Assembly: GCA_022841645.1 (NCBI GenBank)
Contig: JALHRC010000002.1
Span: 36,846-100,845 of the forward strand
Source: Minisyncoccota bacterium
Lineage (GTDB): Bacteria; Patescibacteriota; Minisyncoccia; Phycocordibacterales; UBA918
DNA length: 64,000 nucleotides
Direction: 5' to 3'
A program made the position numbers and the translations under genes. Each line of letters starts with the position of its first letter. Position 1 is the stretch's first letter. This document shows, in pieces, positions 11,014 to 57,095 of this stretch. The notes under the pieces are model-generated. The model was not told the origin of the DNA, searched no databases, and saw nothing but the letters and a program-made list of their open reading frames with translations.

Positions 11014-11033
11014 GTATAGCATATATGCTATAC
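11014..11033. repeat. 20-bp perfect palindrome GTATAGCATATATGCTATAC (CATATATG core), followed by the short tandem repeat tagtagtagtatag
   Basis: Read directly from the sequence. It lies in the 400-nt gap between the TlpA-like gene and the AI-2E transporter. One of three palindromes in the window that share this core. Confidence 0.6.
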
Positions 11034-17889: not shown

Positions 17890-20400
17890 ATGGCTGAACG
17901 TCCATCACGCAAATCTGCGCCGCTAGAAACTGTGTCACCCTCACCTTTAGTGACGGGGAAGACTTCCTCACCGGCTCGCAAAAAGGCTGTGCCTCGTTCC
18001 CACAAAGCAGCTCCACCGGCGAAGAAGATTACTCGTGCAAAGCGTCCCGTGAGTAACACGAAGGCTAAGGCACCCAACACTGATGCACAAAAGCGAGCTA
18101 AAATCGCTGAACGAATTGTCGAGCAGATGTTTAGTGGCGGCCCAGTGAATGTTTCCAAGGGCGAAGCCAGAGTAGTACCACCAAAGGAAGAAGCGGCGAT
18201 TGTCACGGTCCCAAGCAACTGGAGTGTTCGTGTACTCGATAAGGCAGCGGCGCTTGAGCAGTGGTACCAGGAACGCTTTCCGCGTTACGCTGCCAAGACG
18301 GCTACCTACGCTGGCCTATTTTTCGTACTAGTAAGCTCGGGCGTCCTAGCTGTCCATGCCGTGCAGGCCTACCCTAGTTGGCAGTCACTGCAATCGGCAG
18401 TTTTGTGTGGCACCCTCAGTTGCGACGAAGTCACTACCGGCAGTCGTGACGGCACTACTACCGCCACCACACCAGTTTCTGCCGATGTAAGCGCTACTAA
18501 GACCGACTCACTACGGAGCCCCGCAGCGAACACCCTCGTGCCACCACCGGTGGTGACATTTCTTACTAATCCCACCTCACCACTCCTTACTGAAACCACG
18601 TTTGTTGTGCGGGCTGAGTATGTCAAGGAATTATCTGTTGTCGCCGAGTCGCGGCGCACCGGCAGTCGCGTTGTTCTACAGCTCGCTGGCGACCCCGCTG
18701 GTTCTGACCACACCTTCATTTTAAATCCCAAGGAACTCTCGCCTGACGAATACGAACTGCGGGCTCGTGGTGTGGCGCAGCGCGACGGGGGGAGACTCCT
18801 AGCTACGGGCGGCCGCTTTGTTATCTCTGCCCGCACCACCGCTGCGTCGGAGAGCGCTACCGAAGCGCCTTCCGACTCTGAGACTGCTGAGGATGAAGAG
18901 GAGAGCGCAGACGAAGAAGAGACAGCAGAAGTTGTCGAAGAAGCGCCCACCTCACCAGCTGCTGAATTTGGCGTACTCTCACTTTCACCGCAGAATGTTG
19001 GTGATGTTGTGACACTTTCACTGCTTTCTCCGAGCACACAGTTTGTTGAGGTCTATGCCCAGCGCCGCAACGCCACCACCCCAACTTTTATTGGTCTGGC
19101 TGAGCGCCGCGAGGACCATCTGTGGCGACTGGCCTTCAAACCCAGCACACAGCCAGCCGGCGAATACGTATTTTTTGCGCGCTACAAGAACACTCGTGGT
19201 CTCCAGGAAAGCAATCGCGTTCCTTACACTGTTCGAGTGAGCGAAGATGCTGCGAGGACTTTAAGTGAGCGTTCCAGTAGTACCGTAGCCACCGTGGCGA
19301 CGAGAGAGGTGATCAACGAGCTGCAGAGGGAAGCCGTACCACTCCCTTCACGGAGCGCCTATTCAGAAGAACTGGAAGTGGCTACTGGCAGCTCAACACC
19401 AACCACTGCTTCCGATGCACCACTGAGTGAACTCTTAAAGGATGATCGGTCAGAACTCGACACACTTTTGCAGCGCTATGCCAGCGCCTTCCAGAGTGGT
19501 GACCCGGTCTTGGGTGAGGTAGCACGCAAGGACTTAGCAACCTTTAAAGAACGAATGGTCCAGCGAGCAGTCGAGAGAAACGACAGCGACGAACACTCAT
19601 CAGCCGACACCGTGGCTGTGGCCATCGAGGGGGAGCTCAAGCGATTGACTGAGAAAGTTGAAACGTTTGAAACACTCTTGCGTGAGCGCAGCAGCGAACA
19701 GGCACGCACCGACACCGATGGTGACGGCATTACCGACTACGATGAAGAAACCCTCTACGGCACCGACCCGCAAAACGCCGACACTGACGGCGACGGCATA
19801 AACGACGGCATTGAAATCATGAGGGGTTATGACCCCCACAGCGCCGCCGCCGAAGCAGTCATGACCTACGAGTCTCCGCGCGATCTTGGCTTTGAGCGTG
19901 CGGACGTTTTGGCTATAGATACTGTTGTTCCCGTGGTTGAAACTGACATTTCTCGTGGTACACCACCAGTGCAAGCAGAGATCCGGGGCCGCGCTCTACC
20001 GAGCAGCTTTGTCACGCTCTTCATCTACAGTACGCCGGTTGTAGTCACCATTCGCACTGAAGCTGACGGAAGCTTCGTCTATCAATTTGATAAGGAACTC
20101 GAAGATGGTTCGCACGAAGTGTATGTCGCAGTCACCGACAACCAAGGTGCCATCATGGCCAAGAGTGCTCCCTTCCGCTTCATAAAGGAGGCCTCAGCCT
20201 TTACCGTAGCCGATGAGGAAGCCAGCGAAGCCCCAGCGGCCACAGCCCCCGCCGGCGAGCCGATCGTTGTCCGCGAAGTCTACAATGTGATTGCCGCCCT
20301 CGGCGTGCTGGCGTTTGGCCTCATCTTACTGATCTTTGGTATGATGCTGCGCCGTACACCACCGACCGTGCCCGAAACTGGTCCCGCCGCTACGCACTAG
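17890..20400 (+). CDS. Hypothetical bitopic membrane protein with a Lys/Ala/Pro-rich basic N-terminus, acidic low-complexity stretches, thrombospondin-type-3-like DxDxDG calcium-binding repeats and a C-terminal TM
   Basis: Basic N-terminus (SPARKKAVPRSHKAAPPAKKITRAKRP...). TM near residue 145. The acidic stretch EDEEESADEEETAEVVEE. TDTDGDGITDYDEETLYGTDPQNADTDGDGINDG. C-terminal TM VIAALGVLAFGLILLIFGMML. Confidence 0.65.
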   Translation: MAERPSRKSAPLETVSPSPLVTGKTSSPARKKAVPRSHKAAPPAKKITRAKRPVSNTKAKAPNTDAQKRAKIAERIVEQMFSGGPVNVSKGEARVVPPKEEAAIVTVPSNWSVRVLDKAAALEQWYQERFPRYAAKTATYAGLFFVLVSSGVLAVHAVQAYPSWQSLQSAVLCGTLSCDEVTTGSRDGTTTATTPVSADVSATKTDSLRSPAANTLVPPPVVTFLTNPTSPLLTETTFVVRAEYVKELSVVAESRRTGSRVVLQLAGDPAGSDHTFILNPKELSPDEYELRARGVAQRDGGRLLATGGRFVISARTTAASESATEAPSDSETAEDEEESADEEETAEVVEEAPTSPAAEFGVLSLSPQNVGDVVTLSLLSPSTQFVEVYAQRRNATTPTFIGLAERREDHLWRLAFKPSTQPAGEYVFFARYKNTRGLQESNRVPYTVRVSEDAARTLSERSSSTVATVATREVINELQREAVPLPSRSAYSEELEVATGSSTPTTASDAPLSELLKDDRSELDTLLQRYASAFQSGDPVLGEVARKDLATFKERMVQRAVERNDSDEHSSADTVAVAIEGELKRLTEKVETFETLLRERSSEQARTDTDGDGITDYDEETLYGTDPQNADTDGDGINDGIEIMRGYDPHSAAAEAVMTYESPRDLGFERADVLAIDTVVPVVETDISRGTPPVQAEIRGRALPSSFVTLFIYSTPVVVTIRTEADGSFVYQFDKELEDGSHEVYVAVTDNQGAIMAKSAPFRFIKEASAFTVADEEASEAPAATAPAGEPIVVREVYNVIAALGVLAFGLILLIFGMMLRRTPPTVPETGPAATH

Positions 20401-26100: not shown

Positions 26101-27069
26101 ATGAGTCACAAACGTGTCGCTGTTGTCCGTGGTGGCCCTAGTGCTGAGTACGATGTTTCGCTGCGCACCGGGGCAGGTGTACTCGCCACCCTGCGTAATC
26201 TTGGCTATCCCGCCAAAGACATCATTATCACCAGGGAAGGCGAGTGGCTTGAACAAGGCTTTGTGCGCCGGCCCGAACAAGCGCTCGAAGCGGTGGACGT
26301 AGTATTCATTGCACTGCACGGCGCGTACGGCGAGGATGGCACTATTCAAAAACTGTTTGAGCGTCACCGCATTCCCTTTACCGGCAGTCGCTCGTTTCCC
26401 TCAGCCATTGCCTTCAACAAAATCCTCGCTAAGGAGGCACTCAAAGCCCACGGCATCCGCATGGCCAAACATCGCCATTTGCGCAAAGAAAAATTTTACA
26501 GCGCCGATATGGAAGCCAAGCAGATTATTGACGCCTTTGGCCCCCAGTACATTGTAAAGCCAGTGGCCAGTGGCTCTTCCGTCGGCACCATGTTTGTGCG
26601 CGATACCGCTCTGTTGCCGCAAGCCATTCGTGATGCCTTCACGCAGTCCGATGAAGTGATGGTCGAGGAGTTCATTCGCGGCCGCGAAGCCACCTGCGGT
26701 GTGCTCTCCGACTACCGGGGACAGCCAGTCTACGCGCTGCCGGTGATCGAGATCGTTCCACCTGCTGATGCGGTGTTTTTCCGGGCTGACGTCAAGTACA
26801 ACGGAGCTACCGAGGAGATTTGCCCCGGCCGTTTTAGCTACCACGAAAAGGCGCAGATCGAAGAAATTGCTCGCTTTGTGCACGACGAGCTCGGTCTCGC
26901 CCAGTACTCGCGCAGCGACTTTATTATCCGCGATGGCAAGCCCTATTTCCTTGAGGTAAACACGCTGCCTGGCCTCACTGCCGAATCCCTCTTCCCAAAG
27001 GCCATGCAGGCTGTGGGGGCCAGTTTAGACGAGCTGGTGGTGCACTTGGTGGAGACAGCTACGTGCTAG
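26101..27069 (+). CDS. ddl: D-alanine--D-alanine ligase
   Basis: N-terminal RVAVVRGGPSAEYDVSL and IALHGAYGEDGTIQKLFE. ATP-grasp C-terminal half (EVNTLPGLT). Confidence 0.9.
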   Translation: MSHKRVAVVRGGPSAEYDVSLRTGAGVLATLRNLGYPAKDIIITREGEWLEQGFVRRPEQALEAVDVVFIALHGAYGEDGTIQKLFERHRIPFTGSRSFPSAIAFNKILAKEALKAHGIRMAKHRHLRKEKFYSADMEAKQIIDAFGPQYIVKPVASGSSVGTMFVRDTALLPQAIRDAFTQSDEVMVEEFIRGREATCGVLSDYRGQPVYALPVIEIVPPADAVFFRADVKYNGATEEICPGRFSYHEKAQIEEIARFVHDELGLAQYSRSDFIIRDGKPYFLEVNTLPGLTAESLFPKAMQAVGASLDELVVHLVETATC

Positions 27070-27167
27070 TAGTGGCATTTGAGTTCGAGTCCCAGACGGC
27101 CAGCATTGACACAATGTATATTATATGGTAATTGTACGTTACCTGCAATCAGGAAGAGAGATCTTTC

Positions 27168-27476
27168 ATGTCCGACAGCCACTTCGTCCTCCTCGAGGCT
27201 GACACCATGCTGGAGAGGCTCGCGGGGGTCTATGACACAGATCATCTCCGCACGAATTTCTACCCGGAATTCACCAAGCATGCTGGTACACAAGCAACGC
27301 CGACGTCGGTCGTGCGAATGATCGAGCTTGCGCTCGGGAATTTCCTCAGAGGTCAGACGCCTGGAGAAAAGCTTTTCTGGCACCAATCGAGCTTTGTCAA
27401 TGGTTGGATTGTTGCGCTCGTTCCCGACGAGACGCTCGCTGCTGAGACCAAGAAGCTCTGGGCAGAGACGCCGTAG
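27168..27476 (+). CDS. Hypothetical protein
   Basis: ORF track start is TTG 27132. The first ATG is 27168 (MSDSHFVLL...). No recognisable domain. Confidence 0.35.
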   Translation: MSDSHFVLLEADTMLERLAGVYDTDHLRTNFYPEFTKHAGTQATPTSVVRMIELALGNFLRGQTPGEKLFWHQSSFVNGWIVALVPDETLAAETKKLWAETP

Positions 27477-27493
27477 GCGAACAGATGTTCTCT

Positions 27494-27521
27494 GAGCCCG
27501 ATCGCGCGTGCGGTCGGGCTC
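27494..27521 (+). terminator. Hairpin GAGCCCGA-(12 nt)-TCGGGCTC after the preceding ORF; possible terminator
   Basis: 8-bp perfect stem read from the sequence, followed by the moderately T-rich aaactatttgtat. Confidence 0.3.
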
Positions 27522-27604
27522 AAACTATTTGTATATTCAAAAAAGTTCGAACATCGTCCCATACAGCCAGCGGTTACTAAATTCACTACGCTCATAGGTA
27601 CTGC

Positions 27605-27705
27605 TGGACGCGGCTCGTGGTTACTCGCGCCAGGAACGCGCTCGTAACAACACTCCGCCGGTTCGAATCCTCACGCACAGTGCACTGGCACTGTGCTTCG
27701 GGTCC
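27605..27705 (+). pseudogene. tRNA-like remnant. Its acceptor-like 5' end GGACGCG, the 13-nt T-arm match GGTTCGAATCCTC and TCGGGTCCA are identical to the tRNA-Ala(TGC) 3' end, and a 25-nt hairpin insertion splits them
   Basis: 27657-27669 matches the T-arm of the adjacent tRNA-Ala exactly, and 27697-27705 matches its acceptor 3' end. The D-arm and T-stem cannot pair (2 of 5 bp). The intervening GCACAGTGC-ACTG-GCACTGTGC is a perfect 9-bp hairpin. I judge it non-functional. Confidence 0.3.
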
Positions 27706-27710
27706 ACGAA

Positions 27711-27744
27711 CAAAAAACGCACCCTTGTGGGGTGCTGCTTTTTG
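27711..27744. terminator. Bidirectional rho-independent terminator (AAAAAAC GCACCC ttgt GGGTGC TGCTTTTTGT)
   Basis: GC-rich 6-7 bp stem with an A-run on one side and a T-run on the other. Sits immediately 3' of the minus-strand tRNA-Ala(TGC). Confidence 0.55.
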
Positions 27745-27750
27745 TACTCG

Positions 27751-27823
27751 TGGACCCGAGAGGATTCGAACCCCCCGCCTCCTCAGTGCAAATGAGGCGC
27801 TCTACCAAATGAGCTACGGGCCC
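27751..27823 (-). tRNA. tRNA-Ala (anticodon UGC)
   Basis: The reverse complement folds as a canonical 73-nt cloverleaf: acceptor GGGCCCG/CGGGTCC with the G3:U70 alanine identity pair, D-arm GCTC-ATTTGGTA-GAGC, anticodon loop TTTGCAC, T-loop GGTTCGAATCC, discriminator A. CCA is not encoded. Confidence 0.9.
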
Positions 27824-27974
27824 GATGAGAACCGATGTATCATACCGTACAAGGCGTTGTCGTCAAGTCAACAAAACGAGTTGGCATAGTGGTATACGGC
27901 GCTCCACATGTGTTATATAACTGTTTAAATCCATTCCTTTTAGGCACATGTTCGCTTAACTGAGATCTCCAACT

Positions 27975-28298
27975 TTAGATCACGTCGATTTTTTGATTAG
28001 TACGCCTCGTTCTTATCCATATAACCATCAAAGCTATAATTGGTAGGATGTAAAATACATTTACGACAAACTTTCTATCAACGCTACAATCAGGACCAAT
28101 GATGCCATTATATGGGTAAAAAGTTGTGTACGGTTTCCACCCAGGTTCTGTGGAGAAGTTAAGACTCCACTGGGTGTTAGTGAATGAAGTACTCCAGTCT
28201 ATATCTCCATTTGGTAGACGTGGAGGAGAACAGCTGTACGTGAGGGAAGGGAGAATAAGAGGCAAAAGCATAATAATCGCCAAGAAAAGTTTTCTCAT
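27975..28298 (-). CDS. Hypothetical small exported/membrane protein (107 aa) in the low-G+C islet
   Basis: N-terminal signal (LFLAIIMLLPLILPSLTYSCS). C-terminal TM (VFYILPIIALMVIWI). SD-like GGGG before the ATG. The local sequence is AT-rich. Confidence 0.45.
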   Translation of the reverse strand: MRKLFLAIIMLLPLILPSLTYSCSPPRLPNGDIDWSTSFTNTQWSLNFSTEPGWKPYTTFYPYNGIIGPDCSVDRKFVVNVFYILPIIALMVIWIRTRRTNQKIDVI

Positions 28299-28612
28299 GC
28301 CCCAATCCTATCACGGTACTTCTGTATGAGGTCATTACAAAGAACAAAGGTGGTGCCAGCCAAAAACTGATACCACCTTATCGTCTTTCCGATTGTCACC
28401 CTGGCTTGCGCGGTTAACGTAGGGTTAACGGACAGATGCATGCTTACTCGGGCCGTTTTTACCTCTACAGACAATCCGTAGCTACCGAAGCCTCCTGACA
28501 AGTGTCTTTATAATAGCTGCTTCTTGCAATACTTCAACGCTGCCTAACAGCAAACGAGGTTCCAATGCCACCAATGACAACTGGCTGCGATTTGTTAAGA
28601 TACACATAAGAT

Positions 28613-29092
28613 ATGAGTTTAGAAAATCCAGAACGGTTCACACCTGAAAAACAGGAACTTCTTCGACTAGAGGCAACAGGTGATTATGTATTTCACGGAT
28701 CAGATAGTGATATAGAGGAATTTGAACCGCGACAAGCACATAACTTTATTGATGGTGAAAACCATCCTGACGGTGATCCAGCAGTCTTTGCTTCTTCTGT
28801 TGCAGAGTATGCAATATTCATGGCGTTAATAAATAAAACTAATTGCCCTAAGGGATATCGATCAGGAGCAGAGGCTACCAACGGAAGGAGTACTTACAGA
28901 GCAACACGAGATACACTTGATCAGTTACAAAATGATGCAGCGGGGTGGGTCTATGTGTTTGATAGAGGTCAATTTAACAGCCGAAAAAGCGAAGGAATAG
29001 AATATACAAGCTCTACCAATGTAAAGCCCCTAGAGAAAATTAGGGTTTCCAGAGTAGATCTTCCCCCAAATATAGATATCATTGAGGAATAA
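28613..29092 (+). CDS. Hypothetical protein (159 aa) in the low-G+C islet
   Basis: ORF with the islet's AT-rich codon usage. No recognisable motif. Confidence 0.45.
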   Translation: MSLENPERFTPEKQELLRLEATGDYVFHGSDSDIEEFEPRQAHNFIDGENHPDGDPAVFASSVAEYAIFMALINKTNCPKGYRSGAEATNGRSTYRATRDTLDQLQNDAAGWVYVFDRGQFNSRKSEGIEYTSSTNVKPLEKIRVSRVDLPPNIDIIEE

Positions 29093-29190
29093 TAGTTCCA
29101 CTCGTCATTACCGACTGGAAGGCAAAATAGGGCTTATTCTAATCAAACGGTCCTTGCTCTGGCTGTTTTGCTGCACGAGAAACTTAAGTC

Positions 29191-29220
29191 ACCACTGTTA
29201 TCATATATGATAACAGTGGT
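29191..29220. repeat. 30-bp perfect palindrome ACCACTGTTATCATATATGATAACAGTGGT
   Basis: Perfect inverted repeat centred on CATATATG, about 90 nt upstream of tRNA-Ala(GGC). Followed by a second small palindrome CAAAAAACTTTTTTG-like at 29224-29237. Confidence 0.6.
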
Positions 29221-29307
29221 CTCAAAAAACTTTTTGTTAGCTTTGTGCTGGCTGTTAATGCTTTTCAACTGCTGACTTATTTCGTATACTGCCCGCGCCG
29301 TTAGCAA

Positions 29308-29380
29308 GGGCCCTTAGCTCATCCGGTAGAGCGCTTCCATGGCATGGAAGAGGTGAGCGGTTCAAGTCCGCTAGGGTCCA
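29308..29380 (+). tRNA. tRNA-Ala (anticodon GGC)
   Basis: 73-nt cloverleaf: acceptor GGGCCCT/AGGGTCC with G3:U70, D-arm GCTC-ATCCGGTA-GAGC, anticodon loop ATGGCAT, T-arm AGCGG-TTCAAGT-CCGCT, discriminator A. No encoded CCA. Confidence 0.9.
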
Positions 29381-29414
29381 CGAGTATATTTCACGGAGCA
29401 AATATTTGTACAAA

Positions 29415-29435
29415 ATACCCCCCAGGGGGTATAAT
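29415..29435 (+). promoter_or_regulatory. CsoR-type operator (inverted repeat ATACCCCC-CA-GGGGGTAT) overlapping a TATAAT -10 box; a TTGTAC -35-like element lies 18 nt upstream
   Basis: 8-bp perfect arms at 29415-29432. TATAAT at 29430-29435. The csoR-like ATG at 29443 sits 7 nt downstream of the -10, implying a leaderless transcript. GC-rich TACCC...GGGTA pseudo-palindromes are the known CsoR operator type. Confidence 0.5.
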
Positions 29436-29442
29436 TGTGTGT

Positions 29443-29706
29443 ATGAAAGAGTCACACAAAAAGCTAGTTCGTCGCCTCAAAATTATCGAAGGGCAAGTAC
29501 GTGGACTGCAAGGCATGATTGAGAAAGACACATATTGTATTGATGTCATCACGCAGACCTCAGCCATCAAGCAAGCTCTTTCAAATATTGAAAATGTACT
29601 CTTGGAAGAACATCTTTCTCACTGTGTAGTTAATCAGATAAAGTCGGGTAACGTAACAAAGCCAGTCGGAGAAATACTACAGGTGTATCGGTTAAAGCGT
29701 AAATAG
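29443..29706 (+). CDS. csoR: CsoR/RcnR-family metal-sensing transcriptional repressor
   Basis: 87-aa all-helical protein. Pattern KKLVRRLKIIEGQVRGLQGMIEKDTYCIDVITQ...LEEHLSHCV with the Cys...His...Cys copper-ligand triad typical of CsoR. The ORF track start 29344 overlaps the tRNA and is rejected. Confidence 0.8.
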   Translation: MKESHKKLVRRLKIIEGQVRGLQGMIEKDTYCIDVITQTSAIKQALSNIENVLLEEHLSHCVVNQIKSGNVTKPVGEILQVYRLKRK

Positions 29707-29707
29707 T

Positions 29708-30256
29708 ATGGAACATAATCACTCAACATCAAGTGCAATAAAAATTCATCACGTAGCAAAAGTAAGTGTGTGGTCATACTGGCCGATCACTACCATATAC
29801 TTGGTGGCGGCACTTATTTCGCTTTATTCGGTACAATTTCACGCCTACCCTGACTATATGTCACACCTTATGGGCTGGGTTCTGATATTCTTTGGGGTCA
29901 TCAAGCTATCCGATGTAGTTGGATTTGCAGAGGGATTTGCAATGTACGATCCACTGGCAAAACGAAACATCGTTTATGCTCAGGTATACCCTTTCTTAGA
30001 GATCACTCTCGGTATTCTCTTTATACTTCAAGTTCTGATTCTACCTGCTACTCTCATCACTTTGTTTATCTATAGTGCTAGCCTTATCGGCGCTTTACAG
30101 TCAATGGTTAAAAAAGAAACCCTGCACTGCGTGTGTCTCGGGACCTACTTCAAACTTCCGCTCTCGACCGTCACCATTATTGAGGCAATCTTTATGATAA
30201 TGATGTGTCTTTGGATGTTAGCAATGTTTAACAGTATGACCATGATGGTTATGTAA
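29708..30256 (+). CDS. Hypothetical integral membrane protein (4-5 TM helices), co-transcribed with csoR; possibly a DoxX/MauE-like or metal-handling membrane protein
   Basis: Start is 2 nt after the csoR stop. Multiple TM helices. Conserved Cys pair (HCVCLGTYF). Confidence 0.55.
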   Translation: MEHNHSTSSAIKIHHVAKVSVWSYWPITTIYLVAALISLYSVQFHAYPDYMSHLMGWVLIFFGVIKLSDVVGFAEGFAMYDPLAKRNIVYAQVYPFLEITLGILFILQVLILPATLITLFIYSASLIGALQSMVKKETLHCVCLGTYFKLPLSTVTIIEAIFMIMMCLWMLAMFNSMTMMVM

Positions 30257-30267
30257 TAAAATAATTT

Positions 30268-30927
30268 ATGAAAAATCAATCAATCGCAATAATTATTGGA
30301 CTCGGAATCTTAGTCGTTGGTGCCGTAGCGTATAGTTTTGGTGCAAATAAGGATACTGATACCAAAATGGGTATGAATATGGGTGATGACGTACCAGTAG
30401 GGATGCACCGTATGCCAGATGGTTCACTAATGGGTAACGCCCCTGCAAACAACGACATGGGTATGATGGGTGGTATGGATCACTCAATGATGATGGTAAA
30501 GAGTGAACGAGAGTTTCTTAAGGGTATGATTCCACACCACCAAGAAGCAGTTGATACTGCCAAGCAGGTGATCGCTCGTGGCGGTTCAACTCCCGAAATC
30601 AAGAAACTAGCTGAAGACATCATCGTGGCACAAGAGAAAGAGATCGCTATGATGAAGGAGTGGTATCAGGCGTGGTACGGGGAAGCATATGTAGCTGATC
30701 CTAAAGACTACAAACCTATGATGCGTGACCTCTCAACTCTCAGGGGAGCTGCTCTAGATAAGGTCTTTCTCGAAGATATGGTTATGCACCACATGGGAGC
30801 AATAATGATGGCACAAAGTGTACAACCATACATAGAAAATCAAGAAATCACAGATCTGACCAAGGCAATTATGGAGACGCAGGCAGCGGAGATAGAATTA
30901 ATGCGACAGATGCTTAAAACCTTGTAA
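30268..30927 (+). CDS. DUF305-family protein with a Met/His-rich (MxxM-type) N-terminal copper-binding region, secreted or membrane-anchored
   Basis: N-terminal TM/signal. The Met-rich stretch MGMNMGDDVPVGMHRMPDGSLMGNAPANNDMGMMGGMDHSMMM. Paired DUF305-like motifs MIPHHQEAVDTAK and MVMHHMGAIMMAQ. Confidence 0.7.
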   Translation: MKNQSIAIIIGLGILVVGAVAYSFGANKDTDTKMGMNMGDDVPVGMHRMPDGSLMGNAPANNDMGMMGGMDHSMMMVKSEREFLKGMIPHHQEAVDTAKQVIARGGSTPEIKKLAEDIIVAQEKEIAMMKEWYQAWYGEAYVADPKDYKPMMRDLSTLRGAALDKVFLEDMVMHHMGAIMMAQSVQPYIENQEITDLTKAIMETQAAEIELMRQMLKTL

Positions 30928-31053
30928 TGATATGGAGTGAATATTCTTTTACAAAATCTGTTGCAAGGTAGGGCACGCTTGATATGTCACCCAAAACTTC
31001 ATTAGATACTCCCTAAACTGGTTCGATAAATTTCCCCTATAGTCCACCGAGAC

Positions 31054-31095
31054 AAACTAAAGGCACACCCATAACAATGGGTGTGCCTTTAGTTT
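31054..31095. terminator. 19-bp perfect-stem hairpin (AAACTAAAGGCACACCCAT aaca ATGGGTGTGCCTTTAGTTT); possible bidirectional terminator or recombination site
   Basis: Read directly from the sequence. Lies 127 nt after the DUF305 gene. The flanks are only moderately T-rich. Confidence 0.4.
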
Positions 31096-31190
31096 AGTAA
31101 GTGACCAATGTCACTTATGGGTCTCGGTGGAAGCCACTGCGATGTTTTCTGTTCATCATAGAGCAGAAAACCGCAAGGGGGGGTCGACAG

Positions 31191-31232
31191 CACTTAGTAG
31201 AATCAGCACGAAGTGCTTGATTCTACTAAGTG
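31191..31232. repeat. 15-bp perfect inverted repeat CACTTAGTAGAATCA...TGATTCTACTAAGTG enclosing an inner GCAC-gaa-GTGC hairpin
   Basis: Read directly from the sequence. Lies in a non-coding stretch at the right edge of the low-G+C region. Confidence 0.3.
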
Positions 31233-31720
31233 ACTGGTGACCACAAGGACCTGCTAAATTCTGAGCAAAGCGAAACAATATAGCTTGGTGACCGTCAAGA
31301 TCAACATCTTGACTTTCTATGGCTTTGTGTAAACATGTATTTGCTGTACCCATTGAGCGGAGTAGAATCATGGATCCAGAGCTCTTGAAGGACATTCCCC
31401 AAGGTACGTTCCGCATCATTCACTGCATGGGGGATGGTCCGCTCGACTACAGCGCCTGCTGTGTCGGGAACTATAGTGAGAGGCGAGAAGCGATTCGAAT
31501 CGCAAGCGACCACAATCGAGGTCGGCGGGAGGCTCAGAGCTCCAGCACGTACTTTGTCTTTGATGACAAGGGCGCGTGCATCCACTAGGGGACAGGGCAG
31601 TTGTGGGGCCGCAGCATTCGCTGCGGCCCTTGCTAGCTTATGCTACTACATACTGAGCGGCGCAAGAACTAACAATGACGACAGAACTGACACAAAACAC
31701 AATGCTATACTGCTAGGTAT

Positions 31721-32005
31721 ATGACATGGCAAAGACAAGAGGCAATTCGCAGCAACCCCGAGAAGATTGTGGGAAGGATTGAGATGGAAGGTACTGGCTC
31801 ATGGAAGGAGCGCTATGAAGGTGTCACCATCGGGCAGGTGCGAAAAAAGCTTGAATACTCGCCGGAACTAAGAGAGCAATTAAAGAATATTAATCCTGAT
31901 GACATGGACGCTATTAAAAGTATAGCTAATAAGATTGGTGAAGATGAGGCTATACTGGCAGCCATTGCTTTTGCCATCAGATCTAAGTTAATTGGGACAA
32001 ACTAA
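31721..32005 (+). CDS. Hypothetical small protein (94 aa)
   Basis: ORF upstream of the atp operon on the same strand. No motif. The overlapping alternative ORFs at 31300-31600 are ambiguous. Confidence 0.3.
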   Translation: MTWQRQEAIRSNPEKIVGRIEMEGTGSWKERYEGVTIGQVRKKLEYSPELREQLKNINPDDMDAIKSIANKIGEDEAILAAIAFAIRSKLIGTN

Positions 32006-32072
32006 TCTAGTAAGTGGCTTGTTAATACAGCCATAATCTGCTACCATGCAGCCGCAAAAGCGGGGCTTTTGA

Positions 32073-57055: not shown

Positions 57056-57095
57056 AGATTCTTCTTACTATCATATATGATAGTAAGAAGAATCT
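57056..57095. repeat. 40-bp perfect palindrome AGATTCTTCTTACTATCATATATGATAGTAAGAAGAATCT in the divergent promoter region upstream of leuS
   Basis: Perfect 19+19 arms around AT, read directly from the sequence. The CATATATG core is shared with the palindromes at 11014 and 29191. Confidence 0.65.

Follow-up and report, generated by a model that had tools for sequence, protein, structure and literature searches.

A predicted CsoR operator overlapping the promoter of a probably leaderless csoR gene in Patescibacteria

The csoR locus and its product

The DNA analysed here, a stretch of 64 kb hereafter named the window, carries a gene for a repressor of the CsoR/RcnR family, followed on the same strand by genes for a MauE-like integral membrane protein and a copper-binding protein of the CopM family (Table 1). 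The MauE-like gene starts 1 nt past the csoR stop codon and is probably co-transcribed with csoR; the same csoR/MauE-like gene order is found in the nearest relatives (L081-L087). The copM gene starts 11 nt past the MauE-like gene. Its product passes the NCBIfam model NF049983 (metallochaperone) with 102 bits against a cutoff of 90, matches CopM in the PDB (5ffa, E 5e-29), and displays an N-terminal hydrophobic segment, either a membrane anchor or a signal, as well as a Met/His-rich stretch. The operon thus defined is made of csoR, the MauE-like gene and copM, without copA. A nearby copA was considered as the real target of the repressor and rejected, because the window contains no P-type ATPase with a DKTGT motif; no copper efflux pump is encoded in these 64 kb. 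Past copM, a long hairpin, the core of which was found in an inverted-repeat scan, is the first plausible candidate for the operon terminator, an assignment made with low confidence.

Table 1 Coordinates of the features at the csoR locus, in window positions
Feature	Position	Strand	Basis and remarks
tRNA-Ala(GGC)	29308..29381	+	Rfam; directly upstream of the csoR promoter
-35 element TGTACA	29407..29412	+	Promoter scan; 4/6 matches to TTGACA
Predicted CsoR operator ATACCCCC-CA-GGGGGTAT	29415..29432	.	Perfect 8+8 inverted repeat, type 2 (TAC-X10-GTA)
-10 element TATAAT	29430..29435	+	Promoter scan; TAT common to the -10 and the right operator arm
csoR, CsoR/RcnR-family repressor, Cu(I)-type by sequence, 87 aa	29443..29706	+	PF02583
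MauE-like integral membrane protein, 182 aa	29708..30256	+	PF07291, E 1.2e-10
copM, CopM-family (DUF305) copper-binding protein, 219 aa	30268..30927	+	PF03713, E 5.5e-35
Hairpin, 19-bp stem, 4-nt loop	31054..31095	+	About 125 nt past copM; weak T tail; candidate terminator (low confidence)

The cluster is located in a region (27100-32070) bordered by ddl (26101-27069) and by the ATP synthase a-subunit gene (32073). Besides the copper cassette and the plus-strand tRNA-Ala gene of Table 1, this region contains a second tRNA-Ala gene, on the minus strand (27750-27823), and, in addition to the hairpin past copM, long hairpins at 31098-31117 and 31294-31313; its other ORFs are all small and uncharacterised. 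The whole has the appearance of a variable or island-like stretch. The tRNA-Ala(GGC) gene lies 26 nt upstream of the -35 element and ends 33 nt upstream of the palindrome.

The csoR product matches PF02583 (Trns_repr_metal) over residues 5-81, with 93.1 bits for a cutoff of 22.8 (E 1.4e-26). A PDB search matched ten members of the family. The best solved relatives are the CsoR proteins of Geobacillus thermodenitrificans (4m1p, E 2.4e-18) and Streptomyces lividans (4adz, 3.6e-17), and InrS is the third-best match (2.1e-13). In M. tuberculosis CsoR, the x-C-H-C set of copper ligands is made of Cys36, His61 and Cys65, with Tyr35 and Glu81 as a second-shell allosteric pair. Residues 7-81 of the window protein align without gaps with residues 11-85 of this protein (2hh7). 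The resulting offset of +4 places C32, H57 and C61 on the three ligands and Y31 and E77 on Tyr35 and Glu81. Hence, the x-C-H-C fingerprint and the Tyr/Glu second shell are both present. All five residues are invariant in an alignment of 20 homologues with 70-92% identity. On the other hand, His5 is not conserved, and the first ligand of the RcnR/InrS type has no counterpart. Among the NCBIfam models, the copper sensor RicR reaches 77 bits versus 32 bits for each of FrmR and RcnR, all three scores being below the strict cutoffs. The earlier note, made from the DNA letters, had taken this 87-aa protein for a CsoR. The match to PF02583 and the x-C-H-C residues bear this out, and the assignment of the predicted protein as a Cu(I)-type CsoR is supported.

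In helix alpha1, the residues facing the DNA-binding motif RLXR of the studied CsoRs are R11-L12-K13-I14. The first Arg of RLXR is kept and corresponds to R54 of S. lividans CsoR, and S. lividans Q81 has its equivalent in Q38. In contrast, the second Arg, R57, is replaced by Ile14, which is invariant in the clade. An extra invariant Arg, R10, precedes Ile14 by four residues on the same face of the helix, so that the motif reads RRLKI (R10-I14, window 29470-29484). The R57A variant of S. lividans CsoR does not bind DNA (PMC3902906); with Ile14 at this position, the DNA contacts may differ in detail here. This comparison assumes an offset of +3 between the PDB chain index and the numbering of the paper, with the correspondence of Q81 to Q38 as a check. 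The window protein also lacks the long N-terminal extension of S. lividans CsoR.

Two other start codons were discarded. The start of a 120-aa ORF, at 29344, would fall within tRNA-Ala(GGC), whereas homologues are 87 aa long with a conserved N-terminal register. A GTG at 29437 is 1 nt past the -10 element and is not kept in relatives. A protein search retrieved thousands of homologues of 87 aa, identical in N-terminal register; the search places the organism in Parcubacteria/Patescibacteria, with GW2011_GWF2_44_8 as the nearest named relative. Public calls of the family include N-extended versions of 107-122 aa (P0001, P0026, P0029, P0032). In P0001, as in the window, the extension begins in the upstream tRNA gene and is an artefact of longest-ORF annotation.

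Operator and promoter of csoR

The letters at 29400-29450 are AAATATTTGTACAAAATACCCCCCAGGGGGTATAATTGTGTGTATGAAAGAG, with TGTACAAAATACCCCCCAGGGGGTATAATTGTGTGTATGAAAGAG as the core around the palindrome. The two 8-nt arms are perfect and surround a centre of 2 nt (CA), and the next base pair outward is a mismatch. A promoter scan paired TGTACA with TATAAT at a spacing of 17 nt, with 10/12 matches to the consensus. Because the -35 and -10 elements are spaced in this way around the palindrome, the latter occupies the whole spacer and extends into the -10 element. The sequence TGTGTGT (7 nt) separates TATAAT from the csoR ATG (29443-29445). On direct reading, the earlier note proved accurate on these points, that is, in the position and the wording of its perfect 8+8 palindrome, in the overlap of the right arm with TATAAT through the shared TAT, and in the gap of 7 nt to the ATG. 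Rfam matched only two tRNAs and assigned no RNA family to the operator site.

Within the palindrome, TAC-CCCCCAGGGG-GTA (29416-29431) is positioned between the -35 and -10 elements. The TACCC...GGGTA site, described earlier as being of CsoR type, indeed matches published type 2 boxes (PMC3902906, PMC5057107). In S. lividans, two CsoR tetramers sandwich one site, a TAC/GTA base swap abolishes binding, and type 2 boxes are needed for CsoR, as established by ITC and mutagenesis (PMC3902906). The S. lividans consensus is ATATACCCCTNAGGGGTATAT and the copZA1 site is ATACCCCCTAGGGGTAT (PMC3902906); the boxes of C. glutamicum and Bradyrhizobium liaoningense are ATACCCCnnnGGGGTAT and TATACCCnnnnnGGGTATA, respectively (PMC5057107). 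As in the window, the TAC/GTA repeats of S. lividans flank G/C tracts, and the copZA1 site nearly coincides with the Patescibacteria consensus given below. However, the S. lividans consensus is TAC-X9-GTA, X9 being the spacing most often described, whereas the window dyad is X10. The M. tuberculosis operator differs further, being far longer and having its GTA/TAC repeats in inverted orientation (PMC3902906).

For the operator 18-mer, with up to 3 mismatches, 0.03 occurrences are expected per window and one was found, the operator itself. The looser pattern TACCC-N3-7-GGGTA was also found once, versus 0.17 expected. It had been proposed earlier that further copies of the palindrome would define the regulon. 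This search, run on the 64-kb window with the 18-mer (up to 3 mismatches) and with the loose gapped pattern, returned no second copy; with one operator in 64 kb, a regulon beyond the csoR operon is not definable from the window. Perfect 8+8 inverted repeats with a spacer of at most 4 nt are themselves frequent in the window (26 matches, about 17 distinct sites, versus 4.8 in simulations), so that the palindrome alone is unremarkable there. The significance of the operator lies in its sequence type, its position and the comparative data, and not in palindromy as such.

Three other intergenic palindromes of the window are perfect, have no spacer and share the core TA(T/G)CATATATG(A/C)TA. The first (11014-11033, 20 bp) has the half-sites GTATAGCATA and TATGCTATAC. 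The second (29191-29220, 30 bp, half-sites ACCACTGTTATCATA and TATGATAACAGTGGT) is about 90 nt upstream of tRNA-Ala, and the third (57056-57095, 40 bp, half-sites AGATTCTTCTTACTATCATA and TATGATAGTAAGAAGAATCT) is between divergent genes. The 14-mer core, with up to 2 mismatches, gives 3 matches in the window for 0.09 expected. These palindromes could be the operator of another regulator or a bidirectional hairpin.

Conservation of the promoter module in related loci

We compared 89 loci, of which 80 were fetched by protein similarity, blind to the palindrome, and 9 more were taken around the closest proteins. The pattern TACCC-N3-7-GGGTA is present in 80 of them (about 0.5 Mb scanned), once in 79 loci and twice in one (L042). 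In nearly all cases, the box precedes the csoR homologue by at most about 70 nt; in two exceptions, the sole match is about 300 nt (L037) or about 2.6 kb (L074) upstream. The dyad spacing of the homologues is X9 in 47 cases and X10 in 32. Among 73 distinct upstream regions bearing the operator, 64 show an in-frame ATG 9-16 nt past the GTA of the box. A -10 element of the form TAnnnT, mostly TATACT, TATAAT or TATATT, is found 6-9 nt before this ATG in 63 of the 64 regions, and 45 of these 63 also have a -35 element (at least 5/6 matches to TTGACA or TTGACT) 16-18 nt upstream of the -10. The consensus for Patescibacteria can be written as TTGAC(A/T), ATACCCC-N2-3-GGGGTAT, the -10 element, 6-9 nt, and the ATG. 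The same layout is observed in Actinoplanes loci, with GATACGGGTAGGGGGTATGCT (box and TATGCT) followed by 6 nt and the ATG.

In relatives with at least 90% protein identity, the arms, the -10 element and the 7-nt gap are invariant, and the centre dinucleotide is CA, TA or TC. Their upstream flanks are nevertheless unrelated, the neighbours being as different as a tRNA (L081), a protease gene (L083) and a HIT gene (L087). The L081/L082 locus, with 94% identity, comes from the SRR2905836 community. The preservation of the box, the -10 element and the gap amid unrelated flanks argues that -35, box, -10 and ATG are selected as a unit, which moves with csoR and not with its neighbours. Overall, the conservation of this predicted module is strong evidence that the operator is autoregulatory and the mRNA leaderless. 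In five loci (L025, L027, L030, L033, L041), TTGACA is immediately followed by the box, and 32-36 nt without a Shine-Dalgarno (SD) sequence separate the box from the ATG. These loci would be leadered variants of the same promoter, which makes the leaderless layout frequent but not obligatory.

The gene content of the loci is variable. In most of them, csoR is followed by a CPC-type P1B copper ATPase gene, at times with a DUF305 gene in between; one example of this ATPase passes TIGR01511 with 595.6 bits for a cutoff of 397. The csoR/MauE-like/copM type is found in the window and its nearest relatives as well as in L005, L008 and L066, with a reversed gene order in L053 and genes spaced further apart in L075. 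The genes flanking the cassette differ even between proteins that are at least 90% identical. Some carriers were binned as Gammaproteobacteria, Bdellovibrionales, Legionella, Udaeobacter or Lentisphaerae, which suggests either horizontal transfer or mis-binning.

In the window and in L081, a tRNA gene of the same strand directly precedes the csoR cassette, at a distance of up to about 160 nt. Among 60 scanned loci, 7 share this arrangement (about 12%; L006, L010, L015, L016, L039, L049, L050). The identities of the tRNAs beside the cassettes vary (Ala, Asp, Asn, Arg, Gly, Thr, Gln). This adjacency is far above the expectation from tRNA density and hints at insertion beside tRNA genes or at the use of tRNA read-through.

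Start of the csoR transcript and mode of regulation

The earlier note had deduced a leaderless transcript from the proximity of the -10 element to the ATG and from the lack of an SD sequence. There is indeed no GGAG-like motif before the ATG. However, this observation is uninformative, as SD motifs are at background level in the whole window, with SD-like 4-mers before 4 of 43 putative genes versus 7.8% of all ATG trinucleotides (p = 0.58); the missing SD is thus no proof of a leaderless csoR. In contrast, a -10 element with at least 5/6 matches is found 5-9 nt before the start codon in 8 of the 43 genes, versus 1.6% in the background (p = 3e-7; examples are the starts at 17890, 24828, 26101, 48017 and 60903). 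SD-less and often promoter-adjacent starts thus look like the norm in the genome of the window and not like a speciality of csoR. The anti-SD motif is reportedly missing from a subgroup of Parcubacteria (PMC9297842), and the scarcity of SD sequences in the window fits this report. The window itself contains no rRNA gene. A literature search combining Patescibacteria, Shine-Dalgarno and leaderless found nothing.

The argument from proximity is strengthened by the related loci, in which 63 of 64 regions keep a gap of 6-9 nt between the -10 element and the ATG. In mapped leaderless promoters, the transcription start site (TSS) follows the centre of TANNNT by 7-12 nt (PMC3898074), and the position of the putative csoR -10 relative to the ATG would fit this arrangement. 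We therefore favor leaderless initiation of csoR as the likely case, with the A of the ATG at 29443 as the predicted +1.

Two members of the family give precedents for such an arrangement. In B. liaoningense, the TSS of csoR mapped by 5'-RACE is the A of the start codon, so that the mRNA is leaderless (PMC5057107). As in the window, the box (TATACCC-N5-GGGTATA) lies over the -10 element (PMC5057107). B. liaoningense csoR is autoregulated and copper-inducible (PMC5057107), whereas autoregulation is only predicted in the window. The box of B. liaoningense csoR-cueA serves two divergent overlapping promoters, whereas the window has a single unidirectional promoter with an X10 dyad. The partner gene also differs, being an efflux ATPase gene transcribed in the opposite direction from a normal leader with an RBS in B. 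liaoningense, and the MauE-like and copM genes in the window. Finally, the upstream tRNA gene is a feature of the window that distinguishes it from this divergon.

In Mesorhizobium nreAXY, the CsoR/RcnR-family repressor NreA is encoded first in its own operon, as is the window CsoR (PMC12724321). Its operator, a dyad of 19 bp, is positioned in the spacer between the -35 and -10 elements, and the transcript is leaderless by 5'-RACE (PMC12724321). The control region, about 39 bp upstream of the ATG, is as compact as that of the window (PMC12724321). On the other hand, NreA senses Ni with other metal ligands, whereas the window protein carries the x-C-H-C ligands of Cu(I) sensors, and the NreA operator is of type 1 (TATCC...GGATA, with a single G tract), unlike the type 2 TAC/GTA box of the window. 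The earlier note had presented the layout as an economical autoregulatory design. This design is not new, as a leaderless csoR with its box over the -10 element was already known (PMC5057107), with NreA alike (PMC12724321). With the design documented in the family and SD-less leaderless starts in the background of the genome, the layout of csoR is ordinary.

The four-helix-bundle Cu(I) sensors of G. thermodenitrificans (4m1p), B. subtilis and M. tuberculosis (2hh7) have the same Cys-His-Cys and Tyr/Glu residues as the window protein. They repress copper-resistance genes through a GC-rich pseudopalindrome in the promoter, as predicted for the window. Their operons encode CopZ/CopA or CtpV efflux functions, whereas the operon of the window has no ATPase gene. 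The M. tuberculosis cso operon is likewise autoregulated.

Among other readings, the one that survives best, though we judge it unlikely, is that csoR has a leader, either because transcripts read through from a tRNA-Ala promoter (about 29262-29290) or because transcription starts a few nt upstream of the ATG, translation being SD-independent. The promoter scan did find a promoter-like site upstream of tRNA-Ala, and with the tRNA gene 26 nt upstream of the -35 element, read-through transcripts with a leader are possible. With SD motifs at background in the 43 putative genes, the organism must translate leadered SD-less mRNAs anyway, and the five homologous loci with SD-less leaders of 32-36 nt provide examples. 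However, the constancy of the gap, which never departs from 7 nt in the nearest relatives, would be difficult to account for if transcription did not begin at the start codon, and the two family members with an equal layout are leaderless by 5'-RACE (PMC5057107, PMC12724321).

It is somewhat less probable still that the GC-rich hairpin primarily or additionally acts as a terminator or attenuator of tRNA-Ala, its location in the csoR promoter being secondary. A terminator scan found 29415-29432 to be terminator-like (7-bp stem, 4-nt loop, tail AATTGTGTGT). The hairpin is the centroid structure of the RNA of the tRNA-to-csoR spacer, in which no other hairpin occurs, and the tRNA directly upstream in 7 of 60 related loci is not followed by a separate terminator. 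Nevertheless, the palindrome accompanies csoR and not tRNA genes, since most of the 80 box-bearing loci have no upstream tRNA, and several loci carry a separate upstream terminator hairpin. In addition, the hairpin has a poor U tail, the spacer RNA folds in an ordinary way compared with shuffled sequences (z = -1.15), and the palindrome is specifically a CsoR box and not an arbitrary GC hairpin. Read-through from tRNA-Ala(GGC) into the operator hairpin is possible, as is a secondary role of the hairpin as a brake on this read-through.

An effector other than Cu(I), which would leave the promoter logic unchanged, namely Ni/Co (as for RcnR, InrS and NreA), persulfide (CstR) or formaldehyde (FrmR), is very improbable: the functional diversity of the CsoR/RcnR family, the rank of InrS among the PDB matches, a His at CsoR position 5, a window without copper efflux ATPase and the response of certain CsoRs to Zn and Cd in vivo too (PMC5057107) are outweighed by the invariant x-C-H-C and Tyr/Glu residues next to a variable His5, by InrS His21, which would map before residue 1 of the window protein, by RcnR and FrmR models scoring far below RicR, and by copper-related partners (CopM in the window and, in most homologous loci, a P1B ATPase of the copper type).

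Proposed mechanism and its meaning for Patescibacteria

Taken together, the data make it highly likely that the adjacent CsoR has the 18-bp palindrome as its operator; CsoR would occlude the promoter, be released by Cu(I) and thereby autoregulate a leaderless csoR/MauE-like/copM mRNA. From the DNA and protein sequences, we infer repressor binding, the Cu(I) response, the TSS and co-transcription. Without copper, CsoR tetramers, probably in pairs on each site like the S. lividans protein, would bind the TAC...GTA dyad. Bound CsoR would cover the -35/-10 spacer and the first half of the -10 element and thus block formation of the RNA polymerase open complex. Binding of Cu(I) to Cys32, His57 and Cys61 would decrease the affinity for DNA, and the promoter would fire. 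Transcription would begin at the A of the ATG or within 1-2 bases of it, 8 nt past the -10 element, giving a leaderless mRNA. This single mRNA would encode CsoR, the MauE-like protein and the CopM-type copper-binding protein. As copper falls, CsoR would turn off its own operon again. The weak -35 element (TGTACA), Ile14 in the RLXR motif, the X10 dyad and the window without an efflux pump are points against this mechanism.

A wider proposal is put forward tentatively. The promoter/operator of about 40 bp and a leaderless csoR might form a self-contained cassette that moves horizontally through Patescibacteria. Its repressor is 70-94% identical across classes and its flanks are unrelated; it is followed by copA or by the MauE-like and copM genes and lies past a same-strand tRNA in about 12% of cases. 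Such a cassette would work in lineages without SD/anti-SD pairing, with an altered helix alpha1 (RRLKI) reading a classical TAC/GTA box, and the hairpin would perhaps serve as a stop or roadblock for tRNA read-through.

These results leave the biology of CsoR unchanged, since the operator type, promoter occlusion, autoregulation and a leaderless csoR mRNA are all documented elsewhere. They correct gene calls, as the 120-aa version of csoR begins in the tRNA gene, and they make a broader point about a genome seemingly without SD sequences, in which many start codons are promoter-adjacent. A literature search for CsoR and Patescibacteria returned incidental mentions only, and we know of no such CsoR element that has been experimentally tested in Patescibacteria. 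The compact module could act as a portable copper-inducible switch, in line with what was proposed for NreA (PMC12724321). In Patescibacteria, where experimentally characterised regulation is nearly absent, it provides a testable cis-regulatory prediction.
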